DNA of 64,000 nucleotides from Acidimicrobiaceae bacterium (GCA_009835735.1 VXWX01000112.1:1994-65993), one strand, 5' to 3'. Shown: positions 24,146 through 60,251, counted from the first letter of the stretch. A program made the numbers and translations. The notes: generated by a model not told the origin, from the sequence alone.

Positions 24146-25681
24146 ATGAGCGCTGAGCGTCGAAGGCGGCGGCCGCGCCAGGCCGCGGTCCCCGAGCCGA
24201 GCGGGCCTGTCCAGCCGCCGTGGCGGCTGCATGAACGTCGGTTCGAGCCGACGTCGATCGTGAGCGAGGACGAGCTCGAGGCCATCCACGCCGCCTCGCT
24301 TACGGTGCTGCGCGACACCGGCATGGAATTCCTGCATCCGACGGCCCGGACAATGTGGGCCGAGGCCGGCGCCAAGGTCGACGGTGATCGGGTGCGCTTC
24401 GACCCTGAGATGATCACCGAACTGGTGGCCACCGCCCCTGGTGAGTTCGTACTGCACGCTCCCGACCCGACGCGCCATTTGCCGATGGGTGGGCGCAATG
24501 TGGCCTTTGCCTCGGTGGCCAGCCCTCCGAACGCGGCCGACCGGGCCGGCGGCCGGCGCACCGGCAACCGGGAGGACTTCCGGCGGCTGGTCATGCTCGG
24601 GGAGGTGCTCAACTCCGTCGCCTTCCAGGGCGGCTATCCGGTCGAGCCGGTGGACGTGCACGCATCGGTGCGTCACCTAGTGGCCACCCGCGACCTGCTC
24701 ACTCTGACAGGCAAGGCCCTCCACGCCTACTCGCTGGGAGCGCAACGCAACCGCGACTGCTTGGAGATGGTGCGCATCGTGCGCGGCGTCACCGACGACG
24801 ACCTTGAGACGCAGCCGTCGATCTTCACCGTGGTCAACTGCAACTCGCCGCTGCGACTCGATACACCCATGCTGGAGGGGATCCTCCAGTACTCGTCTCG
24901 CAACCAGGTGGTGGCGGTTACCCCGTTCACGCTGGCCGGGGCGATGGCGCCGGTCACGGTGGCTGGCGCGGTGGTGCAGCAGAACGCTGAGGCCCTGGCC
25001 GGCATGGCCTTCTGCCAGTTGGTGAGGCCGGGTTCGCCGGTGATCTATGGAGGATTCACCTCCAATGTCGACATGCAGTCGGGCGCCCCCGCCTTCGGCA
25101 CCCCCGAGTACATGCAGGCGGTTCTGCTCGGGGGACAGCTCGCTCGCCGGTACGGCGTCCCCTACCGGTCCTCCAACGTCTGCGCGGCCAACGCGGTCGA
25201 CGCTCAAGCCGCCTACGAGAGCGTGTTCTCGCTGTGGGCCGTGGTGACGGGTGGTGCCCACATGGTGATGCACGGGGCGGGGTGGATGGAGGGCGGGCTG
25301 CAGGCCTGCTACGAGAAGATGGTCATCGACGCCGACATGATCGGCATGGTGGGGGAGTTCCTGCAGCCCCTCGCGACCGACGCCGACTCGCTCGCGGTCG
25401 AAGCCATCGACGAGGTCGGCCCGGGCGGGCACTTCTTCGGCACGGCCCACACGCTGGCCCGCTTCCGCGACGCGTTCTTCAAGCCGATGGTGTCGGACTG
25501 GCGCAACTACGAGTCCTGGGTCGAGGCCGGCTCGCCCACCGCTCTAGACCACGCCGAGCGCCTCGTGGGTGAGCTCCTGGGCGCCTACGAGCCGCCTCCG
25601 CTGGCCGACGACGTCCGAGCCGAACTGGACGACTTCACCGACCGGCGCATAGCCGAGGGCGGAGTCGACACCGACTTCTAG
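24146..25681 (+). CDS. MttB-superfamily (trimethylamine methyltransferase family) protein, non-pyrrolysine
   Basis: 511 aa with an Arg-rich N-terminus and a TIM-barrel MttB-like sequence (paralogue at 40401..41933). There is no in-frame TAG. Confidence 0.8.
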   Translation: MSAERRRRRPRQAAVPEPSGPVQPPWRLHERRFEPTSIVSEDELEAIHAASLTVLRDTGMEFLHPTARTMWAEAGAKVDGDRVRFDPEMITELVATAPGEFVLHAPDPTRHLPMGGRNVAFASVASPPNAADRAGGRRTGNREDFRRLVMLGEVLNSVAFQGGYPVEPVDVHASVRHLVATRDLLTLTGKALHAYSLGAQRNRDCLEMVRIVRGVTDDDLETQPSIFTVVNCNSPLRLDTPMLEGILQYSSRNQVVAVTPFTLAGAMAPVTVAGAVVQQNAEALAGMAFCQLVRPGSPVIYGGFTSNVDMQSGAPAFGTPEYMQAVLLGGQLARRYGVPYRSSNVCAANAVDAQAAYESVFSLWAVVTGGAHMVMHGAGWMEGGLQACYEKMVIDADMIGMVGEFLQPLATDADSLAVEAIDEVGPGGHFFGTAHTLARFRDAFFKPMVSDWRNYESWVEAGSPTALDHAERLVGELLGAYEPPPLADDVRAELDDFTDRRIAEGGVDTDF

Positions 25682-25713
25682 TAGAGCTGAGGGACCGTGA
25701 GCGTTGCGCACTG

Positions 25714-27015: not shown

Positions 27016-27046
27016 TCAGCGCGAGCTGGCTGGTGGGAGGGTCGAG

Positions 27047-30365: not shown

Positions 30366-30463
30366 GGCAGTCCCTTCGTAGTTGGAGGCGGGCAGCGGTA
30401 GGGTCGCGATTGTTGCACGGCACGGGGCCAACCGGCGTCCCGGTGCGAGCTCATGAGGTGACT

Positions 30464-32158
30464 ATGGCAGACCGAGACCGCCGCTACGACTACGTGATCG
30501 TGGGCGGGGGCTCGGCTGGCTGCGCGCTGGCCAACCGGCTCAGCACTGATCCGGGCACCTCGGTGCTGGTGCTGGAGGCGGGCCGGCGGGACTGGCGCTT
30601 CGACGTTTACATACACATGCCCGCAGCCCTGTCGTTCCCCATCGGCAACCGCTTCTACGACTGGCAGTACACTTCCGAGCCCGAGCCCCACATGGGCGGC
30701 CGGCGCGTCTACCACGCCCGGGGCAAGGTGCTGGGCGGGTCCTCCAGCATCAACGGCATGATCTTCCAGCGGGGCAACCCCCTCGACTACGAGCGCTGGG
30801 CCGCCGACCCGGGCATGGGCAGCTGGGACTACGCCCACTGCCTGCCCTACTTCAAGCGCATGGAGCGCTGCCTGGCCGGCGACGACCACAGCGGTCCCGA
30901 CGGGACCCGGGGCAGGGGCGCCTACCGGGGCGACCGGGGCCCGCTGGTGCTGGAGCGGGGCCCGGCCACCAACCCCCTGTTCGAGGCGTTCCTGGAAGCC
31001 ACCGAGCAGGCCGGCCACCCCCGGACCGCCGACGTCAACGGCTACCGCCAGGAGGGTTTTGCCGCCTTCGACCGCAACGTCCACCGGGGCCGGCGCCTCA
31101 GCGCCTCCCGGGCCTACCTGCACCCGGTGCTCAGCCGGCCCAACCTCCATCTCGTCACCCGGGCCCTCACCACCAAGGTCCTCTTCGACGGCGACCGGGC
31201 CACCGGCGTCACCTACACCAAGGGCGGCCGCAGCCGAACCGTGAACACCGGCGAGGTGATCTGCTGCGGCGGGGCCATCAACTCGCCGCAGCTCCTGCAA
31301 CTCTCCGGCGTTGGTCCGGCCGATCTGCTGCAGAGCCACGGCATCGACGTGGTGGCCGACGTTCCCGCGGTGGGCGCCAACATGCAGGACCACTTGGAGG
31401 TGTACGTGCAGTACGCCTGCAAGCAGCCGGTGTCGATGCAGCCGCACCTGGCCAAGTGGCGCCGCCCCCTGATCGGACTGCAGTGGCTGGCTCGCCGTGG
31501 CCCGGCCGCGACCAACCACTTCGAGGCGGGCGGGTTCATCCGCAGCAACGACGACGTTGCCTATCCCAACCTCATGTTCCATTTCCTGCCCATCGCCATC
31601 CGCTACGACGGCTCGGTGCCCGAGGGCGGACACGGCTACCAGGTGCACGTGGGGCCGATGTACAGCAACTCCCGGGGGACCGTGGCCATCGTCTCGACCG
31701 ACCCCCGGATCAAGCCGGCGCTGCGCTTCAACTACCTGTCCACCGACGAGGACCGCCGCGAGTGGGCGGAGGCCGTGCGCCACGCCCGGCACATCCTCAA
31801 CCAGCCGGCCATGGACCCGTTCAACGGCGGGGAGGTGTCGCCCGGCCCGGATGTGAGCACCGACGAGGAGATCCTCGACTGGGTGCGCAGCGACGCCGAG
31901 ACCGCCCTGCACCCCTCTTGCACCGCCCGCATGGGCCTGGGCGACGACTCGGCGCTGCACCCGGACTCGCTCGAGGTTCACGGCACGAGGGGCCTGCGGG
32001 TGGTGGACGCCTCGTCGATGCCGTACGTGACCAACGGCAACATCTACGCCCCGGTGATGATGTTGGCCGAGAAGGCCGCCGACCTGATCCTGGGCAACAC
32101 CCCGCTGGCTGCCGAACCGGTGGACTTCTACCGGGCGGACTCAACGGGTGTGACCTAA
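30464..32158 (+). CDS. betA: Choline dehydrogenase-like GMC oxidoreductase
   Basis: [21 protein letters not shown]-terminus, [13 protein letters not shown] and a GMC C-terminal active-site region (HPSCTARMG). ATG at 30464. Confidence 0.8.
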
Positions 32159-32580: not shown

Positions 32581-33873
32581 GTGGTAGAGCCAGACTTCCT
32601 GCGTTTCGACACTCTCAGCCTTCACGCCGGCCAGCACAGTGATCCGACGACAGGCGCCAGGGCCGTCCCCATCTACTTCACCACCTCGTACTCCTTCGAG
32701 GACACCGACCACGCGGCCGGGTTGTTCAACCTCGAGATCCCGGGCCACATCTACTCCCGGATCTCCAACCCGACCGTGGCCGTGTTCGAGGAACGGGTGG
32801 CTGCACTGGAAGGCGGCGTGGGCGCGGTGGCCACCGCCAGCGGCCAGGCCGCCTTCTTCCTGGCCGTGGCCACCCTGATGGACACCGGCGGCCACATCGT
32901 GGCCAGCCGCAACATCTACGGCGGCACCCACAACATGCTCAACCTGACCCTGCCGCGCTTCGGCATCACCACGACGTTCGTGGACCCCCGCCGACCCGAC
33001 GAGTTCGCGGCGGCCATCGGCTCCGACACCCGGCTCGTCTTCGCGGAAACGCTCGGCAATCCGGGCATAGAGGTGCTCGACATCGGCGCAGTGGCCGAAG
33101 TGGCTCACGCCCGCGGGCTGCCACTCATGGTGGACGCCACGTTCTCGACCCCTTACCTCATCCGCCCCATCGAGCACGGCGCCGACATCGTGATGCACTC
33201 GGCCACCAAGTTCCTGGGCGGCCACGGCATCGCCCTCGGAGGCGTGCTCGTCGACGGCGGCCACTTCGACTGGGACGCCTCGGGCCTGTTTCCCACCATC
33301 ACCGAGCCCTACGCCGGCTACCACGGCATCAGCTTCAGCGACGAGTTCGGTCCCAGTGCCTTCATCAGCCGGGCCCGGGCGGAGGGGCTGCGGGACTTCG
33401 GAGCCTGCATGAGCCCGGCCAACGCCTTCCAGATCCTGTCGGGCGTCGAGACGCTGCCGCTGCGGATGCAGCGCCATGTGGCCAACACCGAGGCCGTGGC
33501 CGAGGCGCTGGCCGCCAACGACGCGGTCACCTGGGTCAAGTACCCGTCCCTGTCCAGCCATCCCGACCACGACCTGGCCCGCCGGCTCTACCCGAGAGGC
33601 ACCGGGGCCATCCTGAGCTTCGGCATCGCCGGAGGGCGCGACGCCGGGGCCAAGTTCATCGCCGCGGTCCGCCTGGCCTCCCATCTGGCCAATGTGGGCG
33701 ACGCCAAGACGCTGGTGATCCACCCGGCCAGCACCACCCACCAGCAGATGTCGGCCGAAGACCTGGCCGCGTCGGGTGTGGGGGAGGACCTCGTACGGAT
33801 CTCGGTCGGCCTGGAAGACCCCCGCGACATCATCGAGGACCTGGAGCGGGCCCTCAAGGCCTCACAACGCTGA
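32581..33873 (+). CDS. metY: O-acetylhomoserine aminocarboxypropyltransferase (sulfhydrylase), PLP-dependent
   Basis: [18 protein letters not shown] and [10 protein letters not shown] (PLP Lys) motifs. GTG start. Confidence 0.85.
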
Positions 33874-36156: not shown

Positions 36157-37947
36157 GTGAGAACGCGTCTGGCGAAGCCATGGCGTTGTGCCGGGTACTT
36201 GCGGGGTCTGCTGGTGGTGGCGGCGCTGATCGCGGCGGCCGCATGCGGCGGGTCGACCGACGGCGAGACGGCGGGCAGCGAAGGCGCAACCGATCCCGCC
36301 GCCACGACCACCGGCTCCGCCGACACGGCTCCGGAGACGGGTGATCCCGCCGCGGACCGTCCCGGCGGCGAGATCGTGTTGGCCGTGGAGCAGTGGCCCG
36401 AGTGCCTCAACCCGATTACCTCCTGCAACAACGCGACGTGGCTCAGTTGGTCGGTGCTAGTGCATATCGTGCCCCGCCTCATGGAGTTCGATGTCAACCA
36501 CAACATCGGTGCCTCGCCGGTTCTGATGGAGGCGCCGACGGTGGACAACGGCGGGGCAGTGCTCAACGACGACGGCACGCTCACGATCACATACCGGCTC
36601 AATCCTGAGGCGCGCTGGAGTGACGGCACGCCCATCACCAGCACCGACGTGTGGTTCACCTGGAGGGCCATCATCGACACCGAGGGCACTCTCAACACCA
36701 TCGGGTATGACCTCATCACCGACGTGGGCCACGACGATCCTCAGACGGCGATCGTCACGCTTTCGGAGCGCTACGCGCCCTGGCGTGAACTCTTCGGCGG
36801 GCTCGACGGCATCCTGCCGGCCCACGCCTTCAACGGCGAGACCGACATCTCCGGGCATTGGAACGACGCGATCCCGGTCTCGGGCGGCCCCTGGCTCCAG
36901 GAGTCGTGGAGCCAGCAACAGCACATCCTCGTCCCCAACGAGAACTACTGGGTCCCCGAGCGCATACCTCTGGTCGACCGGGTGGTGATGGTCCCCCGCG
37001 AGGACACCGACACCGAGGTCGTGGCCCTGCAGACCGGTGAGGCCATGGCCGCCTTCCCCCAGCCGTTCCCCGGCGCCAAGGAGCGCCTGGCCCCGCCGCT
37101 GACGTTCGTCTCGGGGGCGGGAACGTTCATCGAGGGCCTGTGGATCAACCAGATCGCGCCGGACCGGTACTTCGAGATCACCAGGAACGTGCGCCAGGCC
37201 CTGGCCTACGCCCTCGACCGGGAAGAGATCGCCGATGTGGCCCTCGGCCCCATCATCGACGATCCGGTGGTGCTCCAGTGCGCGGGCTGGAACCCGGCCT
37301 TCGGGGACTGGTGCGCCGACGACTTCGCCCACTACCGCCAGGACATGGCGACCGTCGACCGGCTGCTCACCGAAGACGGCTGGACCCGCCCCGACCCCGA
37401 GGGCCTGTGGGTCAACGAAGAGGGCGTCGAGCTGGTGCTCCAGTGGAACACCGTGGCCGGCAACAAGCGCCGCGAGGACGTCCAGGCCCTGGTGACCGAG
37501 ATGACCAGACCCTTCGGGATCGGCTGGGAGATCATCAACTACGACCCGGGCGAGCTGTTCCAGAACCGGCTCCCGGCCATGAACTTCGGTCCGGTGGCCC
37601 TGTACGCCAACAGCACCACCCCCGATCCGACCGTGACCTCCTACTACGACATCGACGGCATCCCCAGCGAGGCCAACGGTTTCAGCGGCCAGAACTTCAC
37701 CGCCTACGCCAGCCGGCAGGCCAGCGACTTGGCCTTCGCCATCGACGCCGAGGTCGACGAGGCCGCCCGCCTCGAGCTCGTGCGCGAGCTCGGCACACTG
37801 CTGGCTTCCGACGTTCCCTGGATCCCGCTGTACGTGCTTCCCAACCTGCTGGCCTGGAACCCCGAGGTCCTGGAGGGGCCCGGAGGCTGGGTGTCGAGCG
37901 TCTACGGGGGCTTCTACGACCTCTACGACTGGACCGTGATCGGGTGA
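36157..37947 (+). CDS. ABC transporter substrate-binding lipoprotein (family 5, peptide/nickel type)
   Basis: Signal peptide with lipobox (LIAAAACGGS). Size and sequence resemble DppA/OppA-type SBPs. Confidence 0.8.
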   Translation: MRTRLAKPWRCAGYLRGLLVVAALIAAAACGGSTDGETAGSEGATDPAATTTGSADTAPETGDPAADRPGGEIVLAVEQWPECLNPITSCNNATWLSWSVLVHIVPRLMEFDVNHNIGASPVLMEAPTVDNGGAVLNDDGTLTITYRLNPEARWSDGTPITSTDVWFTWRAIIDTEGTLNTIGYDLITDVGHDDPQTAIVTLSERYAPWRELFGGLDGILPAHAFNGETDISGHWNDAIPVSGGPWLQESWSQQQHILVPNENYWVPERIPLVDRVVMVPREDTDTEVVALQTGEAMAAFPQPFPGAKERLAPPLTFVSGAGTFIEGLWINQIAPDRYFEITRNVRQALAYALDREEIADVALGPIIDDPVVLQCAGWNPAFGDWCADDFAHYRQDMATVDRLLTEDGWTRPDPEGLWVNEEGVELVLQWNTVAGNKRREDVQALVTEMTRPFGIGWEIINYDPGELFQNRLPAMNFGPVALYANSTTPDPTVTSYYDIDGIPSEANGFSGQNFTAYASRQASDLAFAIDAEVDEAARLELVRELGTLLASDVPWIPLYVLPNLLAWNPEVLEGPGGWVSSVYGGFYDLYDWTVIG

Positions 37948-37993
37948 GCGACAGCGTGATCCGTCGGGCGGGGCCGGCGGGCACACTTCGGAG

Positions 37994-38974
37994 GTGATCC
38001 GCTACGCGGCGGGACGTCTCGCGGTCACGGTTCCCATACTCCTGACGATCTCGTTCGCAACGTTCTGGGCGGCGGGCGAGATCTCCAGTCCGGCCGCCCA
38101 ACTCACTCTCAACCCCCGCATAAGCCCCGAGGCCAGGAGGGCCTACATCGAGTCCCTCGGCCTCGACGAGCCCTTCTTCGGTCGCTATCTCACCTGGCTC
38201 GGAAACTTCGTCACCGGCGACCTGGGAACGTCGCTGGTTCGCAACGGTCAGGACGTCTGGCCGCTGGTTAGAAGCGCCATGGCCAACACGCTGCTGCTGA
38301 TCGCGGTGGCGATGGCTTTCTCGCTGGCGATCGGGTTGGCCGTGGGCACCCTGTCGGCGCTACGGCCGGGTTCCGTCATCGACCGGGCCTCGACCACCGT
38401 GTCGTTCCTGGGCATCTCGATTCCCGTGTTCTGGCTGGGCCTGATGTTGCAGTTGATGTTCGGCCTGTACCTGGCCGAGTGGCTCCGGCTCGGCGCGCCG
38501 CTGCTGCCCACGGCCGGTATCTATTCGCCCGGCCAGCAGGGCTTCGACCTGCTGGACAGGGCGAGGCATCTCGCGCTGCCGGTGATGGCGCTCTCGCTGC
38601 AGCTGATCGCGGCCTACAGCCGCTACATGAGGTCCTCCATGCTCGACGTGATGGGCATGGACTTCATCTCCACCGCCCGGGCCAAGGGCCTGCCCGAGCG
38701 CCGGGTGGTCGTGCGCCACGGCGTGCGTAACGCGCTGATCCCGGTGACGACGCTGGCCGCGGTGGATCTCGGTCTGCTGGTGGGCGGCTTGATCGTGACG
38801 GAGCGGGTCTTCCAGTACCCGGGCATGGGCCTCCTGTTCCTTGATGCGCTCCACGGCGGCGACTATCCCGTGCTGCTGGCCACGGTGATGATCGTGTCGG
38901 CCGCGGTGTTCTTGATGAACCTGCTGGCCGACCTGCTCTACGCGGTGCTCGACCCGAGGATCCGCTATGGCTGA
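37994..38974 (+). CDS. ABC transporter permease (DppB-like)
   Basis: MIRYAAGRL N-terminus and an EAA-loop-type region (FISTARAKGLPERRV). Confidence 0.85.
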   Translation: MIRYAAGRLAVTVPILLTISFATFWAAGEISSPAAQLTLNPRISPEARRAYIESLGLDEPFFGRYLTWLGNFVTGDLGTSLVRNGQDVWPLVRSAMANTLLLIAVAMAFSLAIGLAVGTLSALRPGSVIDRASTTVSFLGISIPVFWLGLMLQLMFGLYLAEWLRLGAPLLPTAGIYSPGQQGFDLLDRARHLALPVMALSLQLIAAYSRYMRSSMLDVMGMDFISTARAKGLPERRVVVRHGVRNALIPVTTLAAVDLGLLVGGLIVTERVFQYPGMGLLFLDALHGGDYPVLLATVMIVSAAVFLMNLLADLLYAVLDPRIRYG

Positions 38975-39917
38975 GCAATTGCCGTCGCGGCCGGGCTACC
39001 AGCACCGGGGTGCACGCAGGCTCGCCGACAGGCGGTCGATGGCGGGACAGCCGCTCGAGACACCCGGCGACGAGATCGCGCCGCACTGGCGGACCGTGTG
39101 GCGACGGTTCCGCAGGCACCGTCTGGCCGTCGGCTCGCTGGCCGTGTTCACCTTGATCGCGCTGTGCGCCGTACTTGCCGACTGGGTCGCTCCCTACGGC
39201 GCCACCGAGCAGAATCTGGACAGGATCCTGGCCCCGCCAGGCCGCGACTTCCTGCTGGGGACGGACACCCTCGGGCGCGACACTCTGAGCCGGATCCTCT
39301 ACGGAGGCCGGATCTCCCTGCTGGTCGGGGTGTCGGTGGCGTTGATCAGCGGCGTCGTGGGAACGGCGGTGGGGCTGGTGGCTGGCTACTGCCGGGGTTG
39401 GGTGGACTCGGTGCTGATGCGCTTCACCGACACCATGCTGGCGCTCCCGAGCCTGATGGTGGTGATCATGGCGGCTCGAATGCTGGGCGACAGCGTGCTC
39501 GACGTGGTGATCGTCCTGGCCGCAGTCAGCTGGATGGTCCCGGCCCGGATAGTGCGGGCCAAGGTGCTGTCATTGTGCGAGAACCAGTTCGTCGAGGCAG
39601 CCGTCTCGCTCGGTGTGCCCGGCCGTCGCATCATGGTGCGCGATCTGCTGCCCAACCTGGTCGGCGAGATCGTCGTGGCGGTGTCGTTGACCGTGGCCGG
39701 TGCCATCCTCGCGGAGTCGACGCTGAGCTTCCTCGGCCTGGGTGTCAGCGCGGCCCATACCGCGACCTGGGGAAACATGCTCGGGGGCAACGAGGGCTTC
39801 ATGATCACCGCGCCCTGGCTGGTGTGGGCTCCGGGCCTGGCCATCGTGGCCACGGTGCTGTGCATCAACTTCATCGGCGACGGCCTGCGCGACGCCCTCG
39901 ATCCTCCCCGCCGGTAG
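38967..39917 (+). CDS. ABC transporter permease (DppC-like)
   Basis: Overlaps the previous gene by 8 nt. EAA-type region (FVEAAVSLGVPGRRIM). Confidence 0.85.
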   Translation: MAEQLPSRPGYQHRGARRLADRRSMAGQPLETPGDEIAPHWRTVWRRFRRHRLAVGSLAVFTLIALCAVLADWVAPYGATEQNLDRILAPPGRDFLLGTDTLGRDTLSRILYGGRISLLVGVSVALISGVVGTAVGLVAGYCRGWVDSVLMRFTDTMLALPSLMVVIMAARMLGDSVLDVVIVLAAVSWMVPARIVRAKVLSLCENQFVEAAVSLGVPGRRIMVRDLLPNLVGEIVVAVSLTVAGAILAESTLSFLGLGVSAAHTATWGNMLGGNEGFMITAPWLVWAPGLAIVATVLCINFIGDGLRDALDPPRR

Positions 39918-40021
39918 CTGTCTGTTGTCCCGAGTGACCCGCCCCGCCGCGACGAAGCATGCCGGCGGCCCACTAGCCTCCGATGCGAGACTTCGAAGGG
40001 CCTGCCGAAAGGAGCACACCG

Positions 40022-40387
40022 ATGGCGGCTAGAGGTTCAACAGCTTGGCACTCCTGGGTCGAGGCGGTCTTCGACGACTCGGTGAACCGGTCCCGGCCCC
40101 GAGCGCTGAGGGCGCTCGCTGAGTGGGCGGCAGCCTCGGTGGGAGTGAACGGCGATGTCTACGCGGGCATCTCCGCGGGTTATGCGGCCGTGTCGCGCGC
40201 CGCCGAGTCTCCGGAGGCGACGATCCGGGCTGCTCGCTACGCCATCTGGCACGCAGTGACGTCGCTGCGTGAGAGCAGCCCCGACGACGTCGACGTATGG
40301 CACTTCGAGCTGCACGCTGCGGGCGAGCTCATAGGTCTGCGCCTTCCTGACCGTCCCCACCTGGAGAACGTCTCGATCGCCAGCTGA
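40022..40387 (+). CDS. Hypothetical protein
   Basis: The ATG at 40022 is preceded by GAAAGGAG at 7-nt spacing. No recognisable motif. Confidence 0.4.
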   Translation: MAARGSTAWHSWVEAVFDDSVNRSRPRALRALAEWAAASVGVNGDVYAGISAGYAAVSRAAESPEATIRAARYAIWHAVTSLRESSPDDVDVWHFELHAAGELIGLRLPDRPHLENVSIAS

Positions 40388-40400
40388 GAGGCCGAGCCTG

Positions 40401-41933
40401 TCAGCCGATCTCGTCGGGCATCCCGGCCTTGCGTCGGGCCACGTAGTCGCGCAGCTCGGCGTCCACCGCGTCGTCGATGGGGGGCGGCTCGTAGTCGGCC
40501 AGGAGCTGCTTCCAGCGGGCGTTGGCCCGCTGTCCGGCTGAGAGCGAGCCCTCCTCGGACCACTGCTCGTAGCTGGCCGCGTCGGAGATGTCCGACCGCC
40601 AGAAGGCGGTCTCGAAGTTGACCAGAGTGTGCTGGTTGCCCAGGAAGTGGTCGCCGTGGGCGTTGGTGCGGAACGCCTCCATGGCCTGGCCGTTGTCGCT
40701 GATGTCGACTCCCCGGGCCCAGACCTCCATGGCGCCCAACTGGTCGGCGTCGAGGATCAGCTTCTCGTAGCCCAGCGCCAGCCCTCCTTCCTGCCAGCCC
40801 GCGGCGTGCAGCACGAAGTTCACCCCCGCCTGCATCGTGGGCAGCAGGGTGTGGGCCGACTCGTAGGCGGCCTGCGCGTCGGGCAGCTTTGAGGACGTGA
40901 ATTGGCCGCCTGAACGGAACGGCACACCGACCCGGCGGGCCAGCGACGCCATCACGTGGATGGCTTGGCCGGCCTCGGGCGTGCCGAAGGTGGGCGCTCC
41001 GGTGGCCATCGACATCGAGGAGGCGAACGTGCCGAACACGACGGGCGCGCCGGGCCGCACCAGTTGCAGGTAGGCCATGCCCGAGAGGGCTTCGGCCAGA
41101 GCCTGGGCGGCCAGGCCGGCCACCGTCACCGGCGACATGGCCCCGGCCAGGATGAACGGGCTGACGATGCAGGCCTGGTTGGCCCGGGCGTAGGCGGTGG
41201 CCGCGCCCAGCATGGTGGCGTCCCAGCGCATCGGCGACGAGGCGTTGATCAGCGAGGTCATCACCGTGCGGTCGGCGAGGTCTCCGCCGAAGGCGATGCG
41301 GGCCATCTCGACGGAGTCGGCGGCCCGTTCGGCCGCGGTCACCGAGCCCATGAAGGGCTTGTCGCTGTAGCGCAGGTGGGCGTAAACCATGTCGAGGTGG
41401 CGCTTGTTGACCGGCACGTCCACCGGCTCGCACACCGTGCCCCCGCTGTGGTGCAGCTGGGGCAGGGCATAGGCGAGCTTCACCACGTTGCAGAAGTCCT
41501 CCAGCGTGGCGTAGCGGCGACCCCGGTCGAGATCCATGACGAACGGCGAGCCGTAGTTGGGGGCGAAGACGGTGGCGTCGCCCCCGACCATGACGCTGCG
41601 GGCCGGGTTGCGGGCGTGCTGGGTGTAGACGGCAGGGGCGTTGTCCTGCACGATCTGGCGGCACAGGCCGGGAGGGAACTTCACGAGCTCGCCGTCGATG
41701 GCGGCCCCGGCGGCCCGCCACAGCTCCAGCGCCTCCGGGAATTCCTGGAAGGCGATGCCGACCTCGGACAGGATCGTCTCGGCGTTGCGTTCGATCTGCT
41801 CCAGACCCTCGTCATCGACTATGTCCACCGGCGGCAGCCGACGGACCAGGTACGGGGCCGCTTCGGCCGTTGAGGCCCTCGCTGCCCGCCGACCGGCCCG
41901 GCCTCCGCCTCTGCGCCCTCGTGCCTCGCTCAT
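40401..41933 (-). CDS. MttB-superfamily methyltransferase, non-pyrrolysine (last gene of the corrinoid operon)
   Basis: 510 aa, paralogous to 24146..25681 (shared blocks such as AYESxxxL and GWxEGGL). No in-frame TAG. Confidence 0.8.
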   Translation of the reverse strand: MSEARGRRGGGRAGRRAARASTAEAAPYLVRRLPPVDIVDDEGLEQIERNAETILSEVGIAFQEFPEALELWRAAGAAIDGELVKFPPGLCRQIVQDNAPAVYTQHARNPARSVMVGGDATVFAPNYGSPFVMDLDRGRRYATLEDFCNVVKLAYALPQLHHSGGTVCEPVDVPVNKRHLDMVYAHLRYSDKPFMGSVTAAERAADSVEMARIAFGGDLADRTVMTSLINASSPMRWDATMLGAATAYARANQACIVSPFILAGAMSPVTVAGLAAQALAEALSGMAYLQLVRPGAPVVFGTFASSMSMATGAPTFGTPEAGQAIHVMASLARRVGVPFRSGGQFTSSKLPDAQAAYESAHTLLPTMQAGVNFVLHAAGWQEGGLALGYEKLILDADQLGAMEVWARGVDISDNGQAMEAFRTNAHGDHFLGNQHTLVNFETAFWRSDISDAASYEQWSEEGSLSAGQRANARWKQLLADYEPPPIDDAVDAELRDYVARRKAGMPDEIG

Positions 41934-41994
41934 GTTGGCTCGTTCATGGTCTAGTTGTCTCCGGATCGTGAATTCGGCGATTGTCGAGCGATGT

Positions 41995-43971
41995 TCAGGC
42001 CGCGGGGCGGGGTCTGCGGCGCCGGCGGGAACCCTGTTCGTGACCAGCAGCGGCCGCCTCGGGAAGATCGATCACCGCGGCAAGATGCGGGGTGGGATCG
42101 GTGTCGTGGGGGAAGGCCATCGCCGCGACGAATAGCTCCTGGAAGCGGGACTCGGTGGCCGTCTCGATCTTGATCACCGACCGCACCACCCCCTCGATCT
42201 CCAGGCGCTGCTCACCCGAGAGCAGCATGCGGACGGCGCCCACTCCCGAAGCGTTGCCGGCGGCCCGCACACCGCCTGCGGGTGTGTCGGGGACGAGGCC
42301 CAGCACCATCGCCCGAACCGGGTCTATGTGGGCTCCGAAGGCTCCGGCCAGCCGGATGTCGGGCACCTCGACGATCCCCGCGTGCTCGCGCAGCAAGTCG
42401 ATGCCGGCCCGCAGAGCGGCTTTGGCCAGCTGGACGGCACGGACGTCGTTCTGGGTGATCGACAGCAGGATCGGCTCGGTCTGAAGCACATAACTGAAGG
42501 TGCGGCCGTCGGCCACGATGCGGGGCGACCGGTGCACCTCCGACGAGATCACGCCGTGGCGATCGGTGATTCCGGACAGGAACATCTCCGCGATCACCTC
42601 GATGATGCCCGAGCCGCACAAGCCCGAGACCTGGAGCCCGGCGCGGTCCAACTCCTCGGCAAACCCGGGCTCGTCGGACCAGAGCTCGCAGCCGATGACC
42701 TTCAATCGGGGCTCCCAGGTCTCCCCGTCGATCCGGATCCGCTCCACCGCGCCGGGAGTGGCCCTCTGCCCGCAGCTGATCTGTGCTCCCTCGAACGCCG
42801 GACCGGTCGGGCTGGATGCGGCCAGGACCCGGTGCCCGTCGCCCAGCACGATCTCGGCGTTGGTGCCCACGTCCACCACCAGCATCGGTTCCGTCGTCCG
42901 GTGAGGTCCCTCGGCCAGGGTGGCCGCGGCCGCGTCGGCCCCGACATGCCCGGCGATGCACGGACCGATGTACAGAGCGGCGTTCGGTAGCCCGATCCCG
43001 ATGTCGGTGGCGCGACCCCGCACGGCCGCGGCGGTGGTGAGCGTGAACGGCGCCGCGCCCAGCGGTGTGGGGTCCAGGCCCAGCACCAGGTGGTGCATGA
43101 TCGGGTTCCCCACCACCACAAGGTCGTGCACCCTGCTGTGGTCGGCGCCGGCCAGCCCGCACAACTCGCCCACCAGTTCGTCGATGGCGGTTCGCACCGC
43201 GGCGGTGAGCTCGGTCTCGCCGCCGGGGTTCATCATCACGTAGGAGACCCGGCTCATGAGGTCCTCGCCGAAGCGGATCTGCGGGTTCATCCGGCCCGAG
43301 GCCGCGACCACCTCGCCCGACGACAGCTCGAGCAGGTACCCGGCGATGGTCGTCGATCCCACATCGACGGCCACCCCCCAGGCCTCGTCGGAGTAGCCGG
43401 GCCGCACGTCGAGAACGGTGTGGCGGTTGTGCACCACCACCGTGACCGACCGGTCTCCGGCCGCTATGGCCGGGGAGAGCCCGGCCAGGACCGGCACCGG
43501 GAACTCCACCTCGGTCAGGCCCCAGTCGGTGGCCAGGGCCTCGGCGACCAGGTCGACCTCCGCGGCCTCGAAACCGAGGACAACCTCGGGAAGCTCCACG
43601 TAGTGGAGGGTGACCACCGGGTGGATGACCACCTCGGCGAGGTCGATCGACTTGCGCACCACCGGCCGGTGGACCTGGCTCTCCGGCGGGACGTCGACGA
43701 CGGCGTTGGCCAGCACCACGGCCTGGCAGCCCAGACGGAAGCCCTCGGCGATCGGGCGACGCCCCCGGTAGCGCAACTCGGTGGGGCCGGGATCCGAAAG
43801 GACGCCGACATCAGTGGCCGAGACCTGGCAGCGGCCGCACAAGCCCCGGCCGCCGCACACCGAGTCGAGGTCCACACCGCCGGCCCGGGCCGCGTCGAGG
43901 ACGGTGGCCCCGGCAGCCACCGAGGCGCGTATGCCCGAGGGGTTGAACACGACGCTGTGCGTGTCGTGCAT
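41995..43971 (-). CDS. Corrinoid reductive-activation protein (RACo/RamA-like): N-terminal 2Fe-2S ferredoxin plus ASKHA (DUF4445) ATPase domain
   Basis: CGGRGLCGRCQV ferredoxin motif followed by a long ASKHA-like domain (AVDVGSTT, VDVGTNAEIV). Confidence 0.75.
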   Translation of the reverse strand: MHDTHSVVFNPSGIRASVAAGATVLDAARAGGVDLDSVCGGRGLCGRCQVSATDVGVLSDPGPTELRYRGRRPIAEGFRLGCQAVVLANAVVDVPPESQVHRPVVRKSIDLAEVVIHPVVTLHYVELPEVVLGFEAAEVDLVAEALATDWGLTEVEFPVPVLAGLSPAIAAGDRSVTVVVHNRHTVLDVRPGYSDEAWGVAVDVGSTTIAGYLLELSSGEVVAASGRMNPQIRFGEDLMSRVSYVMMNPGGETELTAAVRTAIDELVGELCGLAGADHSRVHDLVVVGNPIMHHLVLGLDPTPLGAAPFTLTTAAAVRGRATDIGIGLPNAALYIGPCIAGHVGADAAAATLAEGPHRTTEPMLVVDVGTNAEIVLGDGHRVLAASSPTGPAFEGAQISCGQRATPGAVERIRIDGETWEPRLKVIGCELWSDEPGFAEELDRAGLQVSGLCGSGIIEVIAEMFLSGITDRHGVISSEVHRSPRIVADGRTFSYVLQTEPILLSITQNDVRAVQLAKAALRAGIDLLREHAGIVEVPDIRLAGAFGAHIDPVRAMVLGLVPDTPAGGVRAAGNASGVGAVRMLLSGEQRLEIEGVVRSVIKIETATESRFQELFVAAMAFPHDTDPTPHLAAVIDLPEAAAAGHEQGSRRRRRPRPAA

Positions 43972-43972
43972 G

Positions 43973-44863
43973 TCAGGCGCTTCGGCGACGCCCGCCCCGC
44001 CGTCTCAGGCCGACCGTGTCGGGGTCCCGGTGCTCGGCGATCCACGCAGCGCAGTCCCGGTCGTTCCCGGCCAGGACATCGGCGGCCATCACCGCGTTCT
44101 TCACCTCGGGGTGCATGGGGTTCATGATCGCGGAGGTGAGCCCGGTGCCTATGGCCATCGACAGGAACGTCCCGGTGATCATGTGGCGGGCCGGGAGGCC
44201 GAAGCTGACATTGCTGGCACCGCAGGTGGTGTTAACCCCCAACTCGGTGCGCAGCCGCCGGACCAGCTGGAACACCTGCCGTCCAGCGGTGCCCATGGCG
44301 CCGATCGGCATCACCAGCGGGTCAACCACCACATCGGAGGCCGGGATGCCGTGGTCGGCGGCCCGGTTGACGATCTTGCGAGCGACCTCGAAGCGCACGT
44401 CGGGATCCTCGCTGATGCCCGTCTCGTCGTTGGAGATGGCCACCACCGCGGCGCTGTGGCGGGCCACCAGAGGCAGCACCCGCTCCAGGACCTCCTCCTC
44501 CCCGGTGACGGAGTTGATGAGGGGCTTGCCCTCGTACACCGCAATTCCGGCCTCCAGGGCTTCGATGATCGAGGAATCGATGGAGAGGGGCACGTCGGTG
44601 ACGCTCTGAACGAGCTTGATGGCTTGGGCCAGAAGGGCGGGCTCGTCGGCGAGGGGGATCCCCGCATTGACGTCGAGCATGTGGGCTCCAGCCGCGGTCT
44701 GCGCCAGTGCATCGGCCTCGACCCGGCTGAAGTCCCCCTTGCGCATCTCCTCGGCCAGCAGCCGCCGGCCGGTGGGGTTGATGCGCTCGCCGATCATCAC
44801 GAACGGACGGTCGAACCCGATGACCACCTCTTTGGTGGCCGAGCTGACGACGGTGTCGGTCAC
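43973..44863 (-). CDS. Methyltetrahydrofolate:corrinoid methyltransferase (pterin-binding domain, MtgA/AcsE/MetH-like)
   Basis: FVMIGERINPTG, LDVNAG, INSVTGE and CGASNVSFGLP pterin-binding barrel motifs. The GTG at 44863 overlaps the upstream stop. The upstream part of the track ORF is not used. Confidence 0.8.
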   Translation of the reverse strand: MTDTVVSSATKEVVIGFDRPFVMIGERINPTGRRLLAEEMRKGDFSRVEADALAQTAAGAHMLDVNAGIPLADEPALLAQAIKLVQSVTDVPLSIDSSIIEALEAGIAVYEGKPLINSVTGEEEVLERVLPLVARHSAAVVAISNDETGISEDPDVRFEVARKIVNRAADHGIPASDVVVDPLVMPIGAMGTAGRQVFQLVRRLRTELGVNTTCGASNVSFGLPARHMITGTFLSMAIGTGLTSAIMNPMHPEVKNAVMAADVLAGNDRDCAAWIAEHRDPDTVGLRRRGGRRRSA

Positions 44864-45237
44864 TGGGGGTCTCCTTCGGAGTCGATGCTGCGATCGGGAT
44901 CCCAGCCGCCGGTCTTGACGAACTCGTCGAGCCGCTCCCGGGGGAACGCCTCCTCCAGGGAGGCTGCGGCCGCCATGGCGGCCTCCTCGGGGTCGGCGGC
45001 GCCCGAGGGGATCACGGACCGGCGCCACTCGCCGACGTACTGCGAGGCCTGGGTCTTGCCCGCCACCATGGCGGCCCGGTCGATGGCTCTCTGGAACCGG
45101 CGGGGGAGGATGCGCTGGACCCGGTCGGCGCCGGAGCCGCCGTTGACCTGGGCGGGTATGTCGCGCCAACTGATCAGCACCAGGCTCCCGTCGTCGTTGC
45201 GGCGCCTGCGCCCGCCTCGCCCCGCTGGAGGACTCAT
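44860..45237 (-). CDS. Small 'virulence factor'-family (PF13769-like) protein of unknown function
   Basis: The 125-aa ORF contains ISWRDIPAQV...RFQRAIDRAAM...EWRR, recalled as the signature of this family. ATGA overlap with the upstream gene and GTGA overlap with the downstream gene. Confidence 0.6.
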   Translation of the reverse strand: MSPPAGRGGRRRRNDDGSLVLISWRDIPAQVNGGSGADRVQRILPRRFQRAIDRAAMVAGKTQASQYVGEWRRSVIPSGAADPEEAAMAAAASLEEAFPRERLDEFVKTGGWDPDRSIDSEGDPQ

Positions 45238-45866
45238 GCCGCCTCTGAGGTGTCCGCGCCGGCCAGCTCCACGATCCGGCCCTCGAGTCCGCCGATGCCG
45301 GTGACGATCCTCTCGCAGCGAAGGCCGAGACGGGCGGCGGCCTGCTCCGCGGCGCGGGCCAGGCGGTCGTCGTCGGCCTGCGCGAGGTGGACGACACGGG
45401 TGTAGTTGCCGAAGTACGCCTCGAGGAGTTCCGGATGCTGGGAGATGCCCAGCCCCTCCATGATCAAGCGATTGAAATGCCGCACCAGGTAGTCGGTGAG
45501 GTAGAAGGTGCCCGGCTCGGCCTCCTGCAGGCCGGCGAAGGCGTCGGTGCCGGCGTAGAGCTCGTAGCAGTGGGCGCCGGGCAGCCGCTCGACCCCCTCC
45601 TCGGAGCACACCCGGTCGAGCAGCCCGCCCGTGCCGCAGTCCATGTAGCCCACGATGATCGTGGAGTAGGCGCCGCGCTCCTTGGCGACCCGGACCCGCC
45701 GGCGGACGGCGTCGGGGATCCGCTCGGGGCGGTTGTGCATGATCGCGGGCAGGCACTCCACCTCAAGGTGCTTGCTGCCGTTGAGGGCTGCTACCTCGCG
45801 CAGCTCGCGAACCAGCGCGCCACAGCCGATGACTAGAACCTTCGAAGGGTGCGGCGGGGCCGTCAT
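45234..45866 (-). CDS. DUF1638-domain protein
   Basis: 210 aa: VLVIGCGALVRE..., YMDCGTGG..., FYLTDYL. This pattern is recalled from DUF1638 proteins found next to corrinoid proteins. Confidence 0.6.
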   Translation of the reverse strand: MTAPPHPSKVLVIGCGALVRELREVAALNGSKHLEVECLPAIMHNRPERIPDAVRRRVRVAKERGAYSTIIVGYMDCGTGGLLDRVCSEEGVERLPGAHCYELYAGTDAFAGLQEAEPGTFYLTDYLVRHFNRLIMEGLGISQHPELLEAYFGNYTRVVHLAQADDDRLARAAEQAAARLGLRCERIVTGIGGLEGRIVELAGADTSEAA

Positions 45867-46579
45867 CCGGCCCGGCGGGCCGTCACGAGGGTCTTGGCCG
45901 TCTCAGAGGCGATGGCAGCGTCGCGGCAGTACGCGTCGGCGCCGATGGCCGATCCGAACTCCTCGTTGAGGGGAGCCCCGCCGACGAGGATGATGAAGTC
46001 GTCGCGTATGCCCTTCTCGATGAGGGTGTCGATCACCACCTTCATGTAGGGCATGGTGGTGGTGAGCAGGGCCGACATGCCCAGGATGTCGGGCTTGTGC
46101 TCGTCGAGGGCGGCCAGGAACTCCTCGGCGTCGGTGTTGATGCCGAGGTCGAACACCTCGAAGCCGGCTCCCTCCAGCATCATCGCCACCAGGTTCTTGC
46201 CGATGTCGTGGATGTCGCCCTTGACTGTTCCGATAACGACGCTGCCGATGGGCTCGGCGCCCGTCTCGGCCAGCAGCGGCCGCAGGATGGACATGCCGGC
46301 CTTCATCGCGTTGGCGGCCAGCAGGACCTCGGGCACGAACAGGATCCCGTCGCGGAAGTCGATGCCCACGATGCGCATGCCCTCGACCAGGGCGTCGTTC
46401 AGGACCTTGTCGGCCGACCATCCGCGGCCCAGCAGGATGTTGGTGCCCTCGGCGATCTCGTCGGCCAGACCGTCATAGAGATCGTCGTGCATCTGGGTCG
46501 TGAGCTCCTCGTCGTCGAGGCTCGCGAGATCAATGTCGTCGTCGACCATGTCGGGTCCGGGAGCAGGGGTGTCGGTCAT
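45863..46579 (-). CDS. Corrinoid (cobalamin-binding) protein
   Basis: B12-binding motifs GDIHDIGKN (DxHxxG), SALLTTT and VGGAP, preceded by a helical cap domain. ATG at 46579. Confidence 0.85.
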   Translation of the reverse strand: MTDTPAPGPDMVDDDIDLASLDDEELTTQMHDDLYDGLADEIAEGTNILLGRGWSADKVLNDALVEGMRIVGIDFRDGILFVPEVLLAANAMKAGMSILRPLLAETGAEPIGSVVIGTVKGDIHDIGKNLVAMMLEGAGFEVFDLGINTDAEEFLAALDEHKPDILGMSALLTTTMPYMKVVIDTLIEKGIRDDFIILVGGAPLNEEFGSAIGADAYCRDAAIASETAKTLVTARRAG

Positions 46580-55916: not shown

Positions 55917-55987
55917 GGCCGAAGGTAGCCGGTTGCAGGTCCGGTGTCCGCGTGCGCGAGACTGCGGCGGAATTGAGGAGGCAGCCG

Positions 55988-58579: not shown

Positions 58580-59241
58580 CCCGCTGGGGGATGGTCATCG
58601 ACGCAGCCCGCTGCGTCGGCTGCCAAGCCTGCACCGTGGCCTGCAAGACCGAGAACCAGTCACCTCTCGACGCCTGGTACGCACCCGTCATCGAGTGGGA
58701 GTCCGGCGAGTTCCCCGACGCCACCCTCAATTACCTGCCGGTGCTGTGCAACCACTGCGAGGACGCCCCGTGCGTGACCGCCTGCCCGTCGGGAGCGCTC
58801 ACGCGCCGCGACGACGGCATCGTGATGGCCGACGAGGACGTGTGCATCGGCTCTCGGGCTTGCATGACAGCCTGCCCCTACGGTGCACTGCACTTCTTCG
58901 AGGACCGCGGCACGGTGGCCGTGGAGGGCGCCCCCGCCGAGGCCGTGCCCAGCGTGCCGGAACGCTACGCGCACCAACGCCACGTGCGGGGCGCGGTGTC
59001 GAAGTGCACCTACTGCGCCCACAAGATCGACTTCGGCCTCGAGAACGGCCTCGAGGTCGGGGTGCATCCCCTGGCCACGCCCGCCTGCGTGGTCACCTGC
59101 CCGGCCGAGTGCCGGATCTTCGGCGACCTCGACGACCCCGACAGCAACGTGAGCCAGTACCTGGCCGAGCACAGCGGCGGCGAAGTGCTCAGACCGGACG
59201 CGAAGACGCTGCCGAGCACCCAGTATGTGGGGCTCCCATGA
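58576..59241 (+). CDS. 4Fe-4S ferredoxin-type subunit (DmsB/PsrB/SoeB-like)
   Basis: Multiple CxxCxxCxxxCP clusters (CVGCQACTVAC, CNHCEDAPCVTACP, CIGSRACMTACP, CTYC...CVVTCP). GTGA overlap with the upstream gene. Confidence 0.85.
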   Translation: MTRWGMVIDAARCVGCQACTVACKTENQSPLDAWYAPVIEWESGEFPDATLNYLPVLCNHCEDAPCVTACPSGALTRRDDGIVMADEDVCIGSRACMTACPYGALHFFEDRGTVAVEGAPAEAVPSVPERYAHQRHVRGAVSKCTYCAHKIDFGLENGLEVGVHPLATPACVVTCPAECRIFGDLDDPDSNVSQYLAEHSGGEVLRPDAKTLPSTQYVGLP

Positions 59242-60251
59242 CTGCGGTCAGTCCGACGGCTGGGGGAGGTGCCGGCCCCCAGAACGTGTTCATGGACCAG
59301 TTCAACCTGGAGGCCCGCACCCAGAGGGTGTGGGACATCAACCACGCCATCTGGTTCACGCTGATGGGAGTCGGCGGGGGAGTGTTCCTGGTCGGGCGGA
59401 TCCTGAACCTCACCGAGGGTCTCGGCTACCTGCTCGGGATCCCCACCGTCGATGTGGTCAGCTTCCTGGCGATCGCGGTCGGCGGGGCGATCCTGGTCGC
59501 CGATCTGGGCCGGCCCCTCCAGGCCTGGAGGGCCTTCGTCAATGTGCGCACGAGTTGGATTTCCTGGGGGGCGTGGTCCGATCTGATCTTCCTAGTCGTG
59601 GCCGGTTTGCTGGTACTCCCCGCGTTGAGCCTGGGCGGATCAGAGCCGTTCTCCGGGTTGGGATGGGATCCCCACGGCGGCGACGGTGGCGGCCTCGCGC
59701 TGGAGATCATCGCCGGCGTGGCCGCAGTGGTGGTGATGACCTACGCGGGGGCGGTCCTGGCCCGGCCCCGTGCCATCCCGTACTGGAACTCGCCGGCGGT
59801 GCCGCTTCAGTTCCTGCTGTCGTCGGCCGCGATGTCGGTGGCGGTGGTGATGCTGATCGAGGTGATCGCGGGCGAGCCGGTGAGCTCGGGTCAGATGGTG
59901 TTGCTGGGCTTGCTCGCGGCGGGCCTGACGGTGACGGTGGTCGGGCACTTGCTGGCCCGGACCGATGCTCCCGGCAAGAAGGAGAGTCTGGATCGGCTGT
60001 TGCGGGGCCGGTACCGCTCGATGTTCGTGTGGGGGGTCTTCGCGGGCGGGACGGTCGCTCCGGCGATTCTCGCCTTCGTGGGCGCCGGCGCGTCCGGCGC
60101 CCGTGGCGCGCTAGCCCTCATCTGCTGTGTGCTTCTCGTGCCGGGCGGCTTCTGGCTACGGCTGCTCACCCTCCGGGTGGGGATCTTCCCACCGGTGCAC
60201 ATTCCTGGCGTCGGCGGGCCGCGGTCTGTCGCCACGCCTGCTGGAGGCTGA
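59238..60251 (+). CDS. NrfD/PsrC-family membrane anchor subunit (SoeC-like)
   Basis: About 8 hydrophobic helices. ATGA overlap with the FeS-subunit stop. Confidence 0.75.
   Translation: MTAVSPTAGGGAGPQNVFMDQFNLEARTQRVWDINHAIWFTLMGVGGGVFLVGRILNLTEGLGYLLGIPTVDVVSFLAIAVGGAILVADLGRPLQAWRAFVNVRTSWISWGAWSDLIFLVVAGLLVLPALSLGGSEPFSGLGWDPHGGDGGGLALEIIAGVAAVVVMTYAGAVLARPRAIPYWNSPAVPLQFLLSSAAMSVAVVMLIEVIAGEPVSSGQMVLLGLLAAGLTVTVVGHLLARTDAPGKKESLDRLLRGRYRSMFVWGVFAGGTVAPAILAFVGAGASGARGALALICCVLLVPGGFWLRLLTLRVGIFPPVHIPGVGGPRSVATPAGG

Follow-up and report, generated by a model that had tools for sequence, protein, structure and literature searches.

A six-gene operon of a sponge-associated Acidimicrobiales bacterium as a likely cobalamin-dependent system of the aerobic type for methyl transfer from quaternary amines to tetrahydrofolate, including a proposed repair module

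The stretch of DNA analysed here, 64,000 nucleotides (nt) from an Acidimicrobiaceae bacterium (GCA_009835735.1, VXWX01000112.1:1994-65993; referred to as the window), has a GC content of about 69% and carries on its minus strand a run of six open reading frames (ORFs) extending from position 46579 to 40401. An initial annotation, made from the sequence alone, had described this run as a complete, translationally chained operon for corrinoid-dependent methyl transfer from a methylated amine to tetrahydrofolate (THF). Reading of the ORF boundaries directly on the sequence together with Pfam and NCBIfam assignments confirmed all six genes, their domains and their order, as follows, with a five-codon mini-ORF ahead of the last gene:

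45863..46579, minus strand: mtgC, small corrinoid (B12-binding) protein, 238 amino acids (aa), PF02607 cap and PF02310 Rossmann domain, His-on DxHxxG motif
45234..45866, minus strand: DUF1638 protein, 210 aa, PF07796 (E 6e-24)
44860..45237, minus strand: PF13769 ('virulence factor' family) protein, 125 aa (E 8e-17)
43973..44863, minus strand: mtgD, methyl-THF:corrinoid methyltransferase, 296 aa, GTG start, PF00809
41995..43971, minus strand: RACo/RamA-like ATP-dependent reductive activator of corrinoid proteins, 658 aa, Fer2, RACo_linker, Raco_middle and RACo_C_ter (ASKHA) domains
41930..41947, minus strand: mini-ORF MNEPT, five codons, its TGA overlapping the MttB1 ATG (read on the sequence)
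40401..41933, minus strand: MttB1 (mtgB-like), non-pyrrolysine MttB-superfamily substrate:corrinoid methyltransferase, 510 aa, PF06253 (E 9e-218)

The junctions are exactly as they had been described. The stop of the corrinoid protein gene (45863) and the start of the DUF1638 gene (45866) share an ATGA, as do the DUF1638 stop (45234) and the start of the PF13769 gene (45237); the stop of the latter (44860) and the GTG start of mtgD (44863) share a GTGA. A single nucleotide separates the mtgD stop (43973) from the RACo ATG (43971), and 61 nt lie between the RACo stop (41995) and the ATG of MttB1 (41933). An Rfam scan of the whole window gave no match, and thus neither a cobalamin nor an S-adenosylmethionine riboswitch ahead of the operon; scans for sigma-70 promoters and intrinsic terminators between 39900 and 46900 likewise returned nothing, a result that is weakly informative for an actinobacterium of 70% GC.

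In order to place the operon among its relatives, species-representative genomes were scanned with MttB1, and the neighbours of the 80 loci returned were identified by tblastn with the six window proteins. All 80 loci belong to uncultured Acidimicrobiales or Acidimicrobiia, the best of them being 97% identical in MttB1. Every detected gene of the other five lies upstream of MttB in the order of the window, and about 65 of the loci contain all five; most of the remaining ones are contigs ending just upstream of MttB, while in five longer loci no match to DUF1638 or to the methyltransferase was detected. The order is kept in nearly all related loci of sufficient length, and the arrangement is not a product of chance. 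The catalytic proteins are the most conserved across these loci (MtgC 81-99%, MtgD 82-98% and MttB 75-97% identity), and the repair proteins are less so (RACo 54-95%, DUF1638 43-94%, PF13769 40-98%). A mini-ORF of the same length with other codons (MSEHR, MRVAS, VDEAQ) precedes MttB in about 22 close relatives (L001-L021, L046, L050), and an AGGAG Shine-Dalgarno sequence takes its place in more distant ones. It may couple translation of MttB1 to the upstream genes, or merely overlap the ribosome-binding site (GAGG). Many of the 80 genomes bear the names 'Candidatus Aldehydirespirator' or 'Ca. Poriferisocius', and several isolate names, as read, resemble sponge metagenome bins; one paper on the genus name concerns sponge-associated Actinobacteriota. 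The host of the operon is a sponge-associated Acidimicrobiales bacterium.

The corrinoid protein carries its DxHxxG motif as DIHDIG at residue 122, followed by SxL...GG, and has entry 1Y80 as its best PDB match. Against the two NCBIfam MtgC models it scores 207 and 166 bits, short of their respective cut-offs of 370 and 310, and it is 74-77% identical to the proteins encoded in the corresponding clusters of Sinorhizobium meliloti and of Azoarcus sp. KH32C. By identity and NCBIfam scores, this stand-alone small B12-binding MtgC is thus closer to the proteobacterial cluster type than to the MtgC of anaerobes or to MetH. MtgD scores 355 bits against NCBIfam PRK07535 (cut-off 259), retains the catalytic Asn of MeTr-type enzymes (SNVS) and is 63-70% identical to its S. 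meliloti and Azoarcus counterparts. Its best PDB matches are the MeTr structures 2YCK and 2YCI (2YCK, E 6e-40) along with MetH folate domains. The methylcobalamin:THF methyltransferase MtgA of Desulfitobacterium hafniense, for which the structures 6SJ8, 6SK4, 6SJS and 6SJO are available (PMC7154762), contributes no chain to the 17 PDB sequence matches of MtgD at E<=1e-3. Judged by sequence, the THF methyltransferase of the operon is of the MeTr/MetH pterin-binding type and not of the MtgA type.

The activator was correctly predicted as a RACo-type protein with a 2Fe-2S cluster and an ASKHA domain: besides the Fer2 and RACo domains, it displays the four-cysteine pattern of a 2Fe-2S site (Cys39/45/48/82) and the ASKHA phosphate motifs DVGST and DVGTN. 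It is 50-54% identical to the ASKHA proteins of S. meliloti and Azoarcus and reaches 333 bits against the AcsV model, whose cut-off is 800. The DUF1638 protein is 46-55% identical to its homologs in the same two organisms, and residues C15, H44, N45, D76, C77, H99 and C100 are invariant across phyla; the pattern formed by Cys15, Cys77 and Cys100 with His44 and His99 could be a metal site. An identical DUF1638 is encoded in a metagenome-assembled genome of 3.5 Mb (P0272). By sequence, DUF1638 has no match in the PDB, and a Foldseek search of the PDB with its structural model (predicted local distance difference test, pLDDT, 78) gave no significant match either, the best hit (E 0.018) being generically Rossmann-like.

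MttB1 is encoded by an uninterrupted ORF without an in-frame stop codon, and hence lacks pyrrolysine; in agreement with its description as a non-pyrrolysine MttB, it scores 255 bits against TIGR02369, the equivalog model for pyrrolysine MttB with a cut-off of 525. Its closest solved structure is PDB 4YYC (649 bits), a structural genomics entry named 'putative trimethylamine methyltransferase', followed by the D. hafniense glycine betaine methyltransferase MtgB (2QNE/9YCE, 400 bits), whereas 7XCL reaches only 98 bits. In MtgB, the glycine betaine site is known from mutagenesis and from a structure with the ligand in place: cation-pi contacts come from Y97 and F356, whereas the carboxylate is held by R312 and H348 (PMC13080624). 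Mapping of these positions by HMMER alignment to 2QNE (numbering offset 16) places Tyr127, Arg340 and His376 of MttB1 at Y97, R312 and H348, so that three of the four glycine-betaine-binding residues are kept. The signature Y127/R340/H376/W380/G384 is invariant in all 80 Acidimicrobiia MttB1 orthologs, and the same Y/R/H/W/G residues occur in 4YYC, in the MttB of the S. meliloti cluster, which is 59% identical to MttB1, and in 17 of 21 cluster-linked metagenome MttBs. 4YYC can be aligned to MttB1 over nearly its full length and has the Y/R/H residues and the AGWxEGGL motif in common with it; over the aligned stretches it seems to be identical in sequence to the S. meliloti cluster MttB. As the entry has no published substrate or function, it holds no information on specificity. 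Conservation of Arg and His points to a quaternary amine with an acidic group, and the substrate of MttB1 is therefore probably a carboxylated quaternary amine, among which homology and the gene context in Azoarcus would make glycine betaine the most likely one.

That context stems from a system described in aerobic bacteria. In Phaeobacter inhibens, methionine is made by a split B12 enzyme whose function depends on two further proteins, one of them RamA-like (ferredoxin/DUF4445) and the other from the DUF1638 family (Price 2018, PMC5764234). In the aerobe Ruegeria pomeroyi, the B12-binding MtgC and the pterin-binding MtgD are essential both for methionine synthesis and for growth on glycine betaine, and MtgB1, MtgB2 (PF06253), RamA and DUF1638 are induced on N-osmolytes; S. 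meliloti carries mtgBCDE and the reactivation genes at one location, the homologs are grouped likewise in many marine Alpha-, Gamma- and Deltaproteobacteria, and Actinomycetota account for 5% of the mtgC reads from the ocean (Mausz 2025, PMC12478193). In the annotated records, plasmid pAZKH of Azoarcus sp. KH32C has the order corrinoid protein, DUF1638, 'virulence factor', MetV-like, MetF, pterin methyltransferase and ASKHA protein, flanked by glycine betaine ABC (ATP-binding cassette) transporter genes, and the S. meliloti cluster combines an Azoarcus-like gene set, its PF13769 gene adjoining metV and metF, with an MttB and bmt.

The window operon matches this aerobic system in five component families, namely a PF06253 MttB, a small B12-binding protein, a MeTr-type pterin methyltransferase, an activator with Fer2 and ASKHA domains, and DUF1638. 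Its proteins are 46-77% identical to those of S. meliloti and Azoarcus (37% for PF13769), it shares with Azoarcus the local order MtgC-DUF1638-PF13769-...-MtgD-RACo, and its host, too, uses oxygen. There are differences as well. The host is an actinomycetotal sponge symbiont of the class Acidimicrobiia rather than a proteobacterium; the operon is compact and holds all components including MttB, unlike in R. pomeroyi and P. inhibens, where they are dispersed; the MetV/MetF pair found between PF13769 and MtgD in many proteobacterial versions is missing; and no MtgE was found near the operon.

The operon had originally been likened to the MtgABC pathway of strict anaerobes. It does share the general logic of D. 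hafniense MtgABC, with a substrate methyltransferase, a corrinoid protein and a THF methyltransferase plus an ATP-dependent activator (Ticak 2014; PMC13080624; PMC7154762), and the same three-component logic is found in the MtpB, MtcB, MtyB and MthB systems of Eubacterium limosum. MttB1 also resembles MtgB in the match and the three residues given above. In contrast, MtgD is not MtgA-type, the corrinoid protein falls below both MtgC models, F356 of MtgB is replaced by Gly, DUF1638 and PF13769 partners accompany the operon, unlike in the D. hafniense and E. limosum systems as described, and the host is no strict anaerobe. The label 'MtgABC-type' is accordingly replaced: by homology and gene content, the operon is of the aerobic MtgBCD, RamA-like and DUF1638 kind, though it would work like MtgABC. 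The contrast that had been drawn between an anaerobe pathway and a genome with O2-dependent neighbours falls away with it. Pfam confirms those neighbours, a Rieske oxygenase, a GMC oxidoreductase and a membrane desaturase; yet an oxygen-using host poses no paradox, because the closest system is that of aerobic Proteobacteria, known from Roseobacters (PMC5764234, PMC12478193). The term 'complete' was likewise too strong, since the MetF and MetV of many proteobacterial versions were found neither in the operon nor among the Pfam-scanned window ORFs.

Taken together, we consider it likely that the operon encodes an aerobic-type cobalamin-dependent quaternary-amine:THF methyltransferase system (MtgB-MtgC-MtgD) with its own repair module. 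The predicted chemistry, methyl transfer by way of a corrinoid from a methylated amine to THF, fits the motifs and the homology and agrees with what had been proposed at the outset. MttB1 would bind a carboxylate-bearing quaternary amine, most likely glycine betaine, with Arg340 and His376 holding the carboxylate and Tyr127, probably with Trp380, holding the cation. It would offer one N-methyl group to the Co(I) of MtgC, and MtgD would pass the methyl group from methyl-Co(III)-MtgC to THF, yielding methyl-THF, a direction of methyl flow that we infer. In a cell exposed to O2, Co(I) should often be oxidised to inactive Co(II); the RACo-type activator would then restore Co(I) via its 2Fe-2S cluster and ASKHA ATPase domain, presumably assisted by DUF1638 and putatively by the PF13769 protein. 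The stop/start overlaps would tie the first four genes together in translation, with the fifth following after 1 nt and MttB1 perhaps being linked through the five-codon mini-ORF. A glycine betaine route also fits the presence in the window of a gene that resembles dimethylglycine or sarcosine dehydrogenase and combines DAO and GCV_T domains.

Several points weigh against this assignment. The fourth glycine betaine contact is lost, F356 of MtgB corresponding to Gly384 in MttB1; Trp380 of the AGWxEGGL motif lies four residues earlier, and the cation-binding role suggested for it is speculative. No glycine betaine transporter adjoins the operon in the window, the nearby ABC system being Opp/Dpp-like, and no MetF that could oxidise methyl-THF is found among the Pfam-scanned window ORFs. 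Moreover, orthology to the R. pomeroyi system, the only genetically studied aerobic one, is drawn by way of the S. meliloti and Azoarcus homologs.

The lost aromatic contact bears most directly on the identity of the substrate. MttB1 could work by the same mechanism on proline betaine, carnitine, gamma-butyrobetaine or a sponge-derived betaine, which we regard as possible but rather less probable than not. The aromatic pair differs among MtcB, MtpB, MtyB and MthB while R312 is common to them (Picking 2026, PMC13080624), so that Gly384 in place of F356 would be compatible with such a substrate; carnitine has been found in sponge tissue (PMC9999580), and the missing betaine transporter points the same way. 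Glycine betaine is favoured over these candidates by the Y/R/H/W signature and 59% identity shared with the S. meliloti MttB, which comes from a cluster described as mtgBCDE (Mausz 2025), and by the dehydrogenase-like gene in the window. A different question is whether demethylation is the primary task at all. For the core of MtgC, MtgD, RACo and DUF1638, the main or an equal task might be that of a split methionine synthase dependent on cobalamin, with MttB as a catabolic add-on, a role that overlaps with the demethylation system and had not been considered in the initial annotation. MtgD would then run from methyl-THF to cobalt, and the homocysteine-binding subunit needed to complete the enzyme, MtgE (PF02574), would be encoded elsewhere. 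Orthologous MtgC, MtgD, RamA-like and DUF1638 proteins are needed for methionine prototrophy in P. inhibens and R. pomeroyi, classical MetH is missing from about 70% of marine MtgBCD genomes (Mausz 2025, PMC12478193), and a Cys/Met-metabolism pyridoxal phosphate (PLP) enzyme is encoded in the window at 32581-33873. However, neither a PF02574 nor a MetH gene was found in the 64-kb window or in the examined 8-kb flanks of related loci, and in the Acidimicrobiia loci MttB belongs to the same conserved gene string as the core, which argues for a primary role in demethylation; we hold a main or equal synthase function to be somewhat unlikely.

Far less probable, indeed hardly tenable, is a methanogen-type trimethylamine system with pyrrolysine MttB and MttC, or a Wood-Ljungdahl methyl branch in which AcsE acts with RACo and a corrinoid iron-sulfur protein (CFeSP). 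Such readings could draw on the Pfam family name 'trimethylamine methyltransferase' and on the best PDB and NCBIfam matches of MtgD and RACo, acetogen MeTr and AcsV. Both were rejected on sequence, given the lack of an in-frame amber codon in MttB1 and the scores of TIGR02369 and AcsV below their cut-offs. In addition, no genes for CFeSP, carbon monoxide dehydrogenase/acetyl-CoA synthase (CODH/ACS), Mtr or Mcr were found in the window, and MtgC, a small B12 protein of the His-on type, is no CFeSP.

Within the preferred demethylation system, the PF13769 protein is the component about which the literature says least. The family is not mentioned in the two studies of the aerobic system (Price 2018, PMC5764234; Mausz 2025, PMC12478193), a full-text literature search for its accession found no papers, and the phrase 'virulence factor' does not occur in the supplements of Mausz 2025 (PMC12478193). 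The window protein is 37% identical to its counterpart in Azoarcus. An exhaustive search of 1.84 billion representative proteins at E<=1e-3 showed the family to be small, with only 555 clusters at 50% identity, most of them stand-alone proteins of 100-150 aa. Fusions occur with RACo, in P0232 and in a 760-aa protein on a plasmid of Terrarubrum flagellatum, and with DUF1638, in P0151. Among 80 metagenome loci retrieved with the PF13769 profile, DUF1638 is encoded directly upstream in 48 of the 62 that have at least 700 nt of upstream sequence, and MtgD (26), MetV (14) or RACo (4) directly downstream in 44 of the 54 whose downstream sequence reaches 1 kb or more. Two layouts recur, MtgC-DUF1638-PF13769-MtgD-RACo-MttB, as in the window, and MtgC-DUF1638-PF13769-MetV-MetF-MtgD-RACo. 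The AlphaFold model of the protein is confident (pLDDT 89.5), with W24, P28 and F48 invariant, and Foldseek found no significant match to it in the PDB (best E 0.45). It is because of the gene fusions and the gene neighbourhood that PF13769 is placed in the reactivation module. We infer, as an evenly balanced proposition, that it is a dedicated third component of the corrinoid reductive-reactivation machinery, beside RACo and DUF1638, in bacteria that run B12 methyltransferases with oxygen present. It may help RACo to dock onto the corrinoid protein, or may supply it with electrons. The link of PF13769 to RACo and DUF1638 may be new, and is the most useful new lead of this analysis.

Beyond the operon, the window contains the following genes of interest:

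5868-7751: methylmalonyl-CoA mutase, the only other B12 enzyme among the Pfam-scanned window ORFs
19017-20033, plus strand: membrane desaturase (fatty-acid-desaturase family), Pfam
24146..25681, plus strand: MttB2, second non-pyrrolysine MttB paralog, PF06253 (E 3e-188)
25714-27015, plus strand: Rieske oxygenase, Pfam, weakly GbcA-like (143 bits versus a cut-off of 670)
30410-32158: GMC oxidoreductase, Pfam
32581-33873: Cys/Met-metabolism PLP enzyme

The same scan of window ORFs with Pfam detected no MetF, MetV, MetH, MtgE (PF02574) or cob genes.

The second MttB, which had been recognised at 24146, is 41% identical to MttB1 and has no internal stop codon. When the active sites of both proteins are compared with MtgB, as had been advised, the outcome is mixed: MttB1 keeps Y/R/H but has Gly384 for F356, and MttB2 keeps Arg, His and Trp but has Ala125 at the position of Tyr97. 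This alanine makes a different substrate probable, so that MttB2 probably acts on another compound than MttB1. Up to seven MttB paralogs have been reported beside mtgC and mtgD in marine bacteria (Mausz 2025, PMC12478193), and it is therefore plausible that MttB2 shares the MtgC, MtgD and RACo core with MttB1. MttB2 heads a string of three genes on the plus strand (24146-29599), followed at 32 nt by the Rieske oxygenase alpha subunit and then at 31 nt by the DAO and GCV_T protein of 850 aa. On a Mesorhizobium plasmid (L084, 8004-12638), a 51%-identical MttB is likewise accompanied by a Rieske alpha subunit, together with a 2-oxoglutarate oxygenase and an oxidoreductase of the Ldh family. A single putative pathway thus appears to join N-demethylation that depends on B12 with N-demethylation by an oxygenase. 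Further MttB-family paralogs, less than 50% identical to MttB1, are encoded in the flanks of 12 of the 80 Acidimicrobiia loci; they lack the carboxylate-binding Arg and His, having G-G-E-M-L at the five signature positions, which suggests non-acidic substrates.

Genes of the desaturase family recur near MttB or MtgC genes, in this window as well as at L082 (7580-8536) and L085 (1-419); one adjoins the B12-binding, DUF1638 and PF13769-RACo genes on the Terrarubrum plasmid, and a Phaeobacter plasmid carries another at a distance of about 7.5 kb from an MttB. This proximity could be coincidence or reflect an unrecognised di-iron enzyme of betaine metabolism. The Opp/Dpp-type ABC system (36157-39917, plus strand), with an SBP_bac_5 binding protein and two permeases, converges on the end of the operon; no ATPase gene follows the permeases, and peptide-type transporter genes are likewise found near the Terrarubrum cluster. 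Between the two, an ORF of 134 aa (39983-40387, plus strand), convergent with MttB1, is coding-like without a Pfam match and is found by tblastn beside the operon in the closest relatives at 63-97% identity. Another ORF of 367 aa (22966-24069, minus strand), divergent from MttB2, has a coding-like profile of GC at third codon positions and no Pfam or NCBIfam match. Finally, a molybdopterin oxidoreductase gene followed by a gene for an NrfD-like membrane subunit (55952-60251, plus strand) suggests a respiratory or anaerobic-type redox complex and would fit a facultative lifestyle in sponge tissue with perhaps fluctuating oxygen.

A system of this kind is already known in aerobic bacteria (Price 2018; Mausz 2025); what the window adds is an Acidimicrobiia, sponge-associated and fully clustered example. 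The reach of the recently described aerobic B12-dependent betaine demethylation would thereby widen from marine Proteobacteria to Acidimicrobiia sponge symbionts, in which the operon is conserved across the roughly 80 species-level genomes retrieved, implying that host-derived or algal quaternary amines and the supply of cobalamin matter to this symbiont guild. MttB homologs in sponge metatranscriptomes should accordingly be taken for betaine demethylases that feed folate one-carbon metabolism rather than for signs of methanogenesis or of growth on trimethylamine. The compact six-gene operon offers a handy unit for heterologous reconstitution, and the link of PF13769 to RACo and DUF1638 a testable lead on how Co(I) may be kept alive in oxygen-exposed cells, a question that applies equally to the split methionine synthase.

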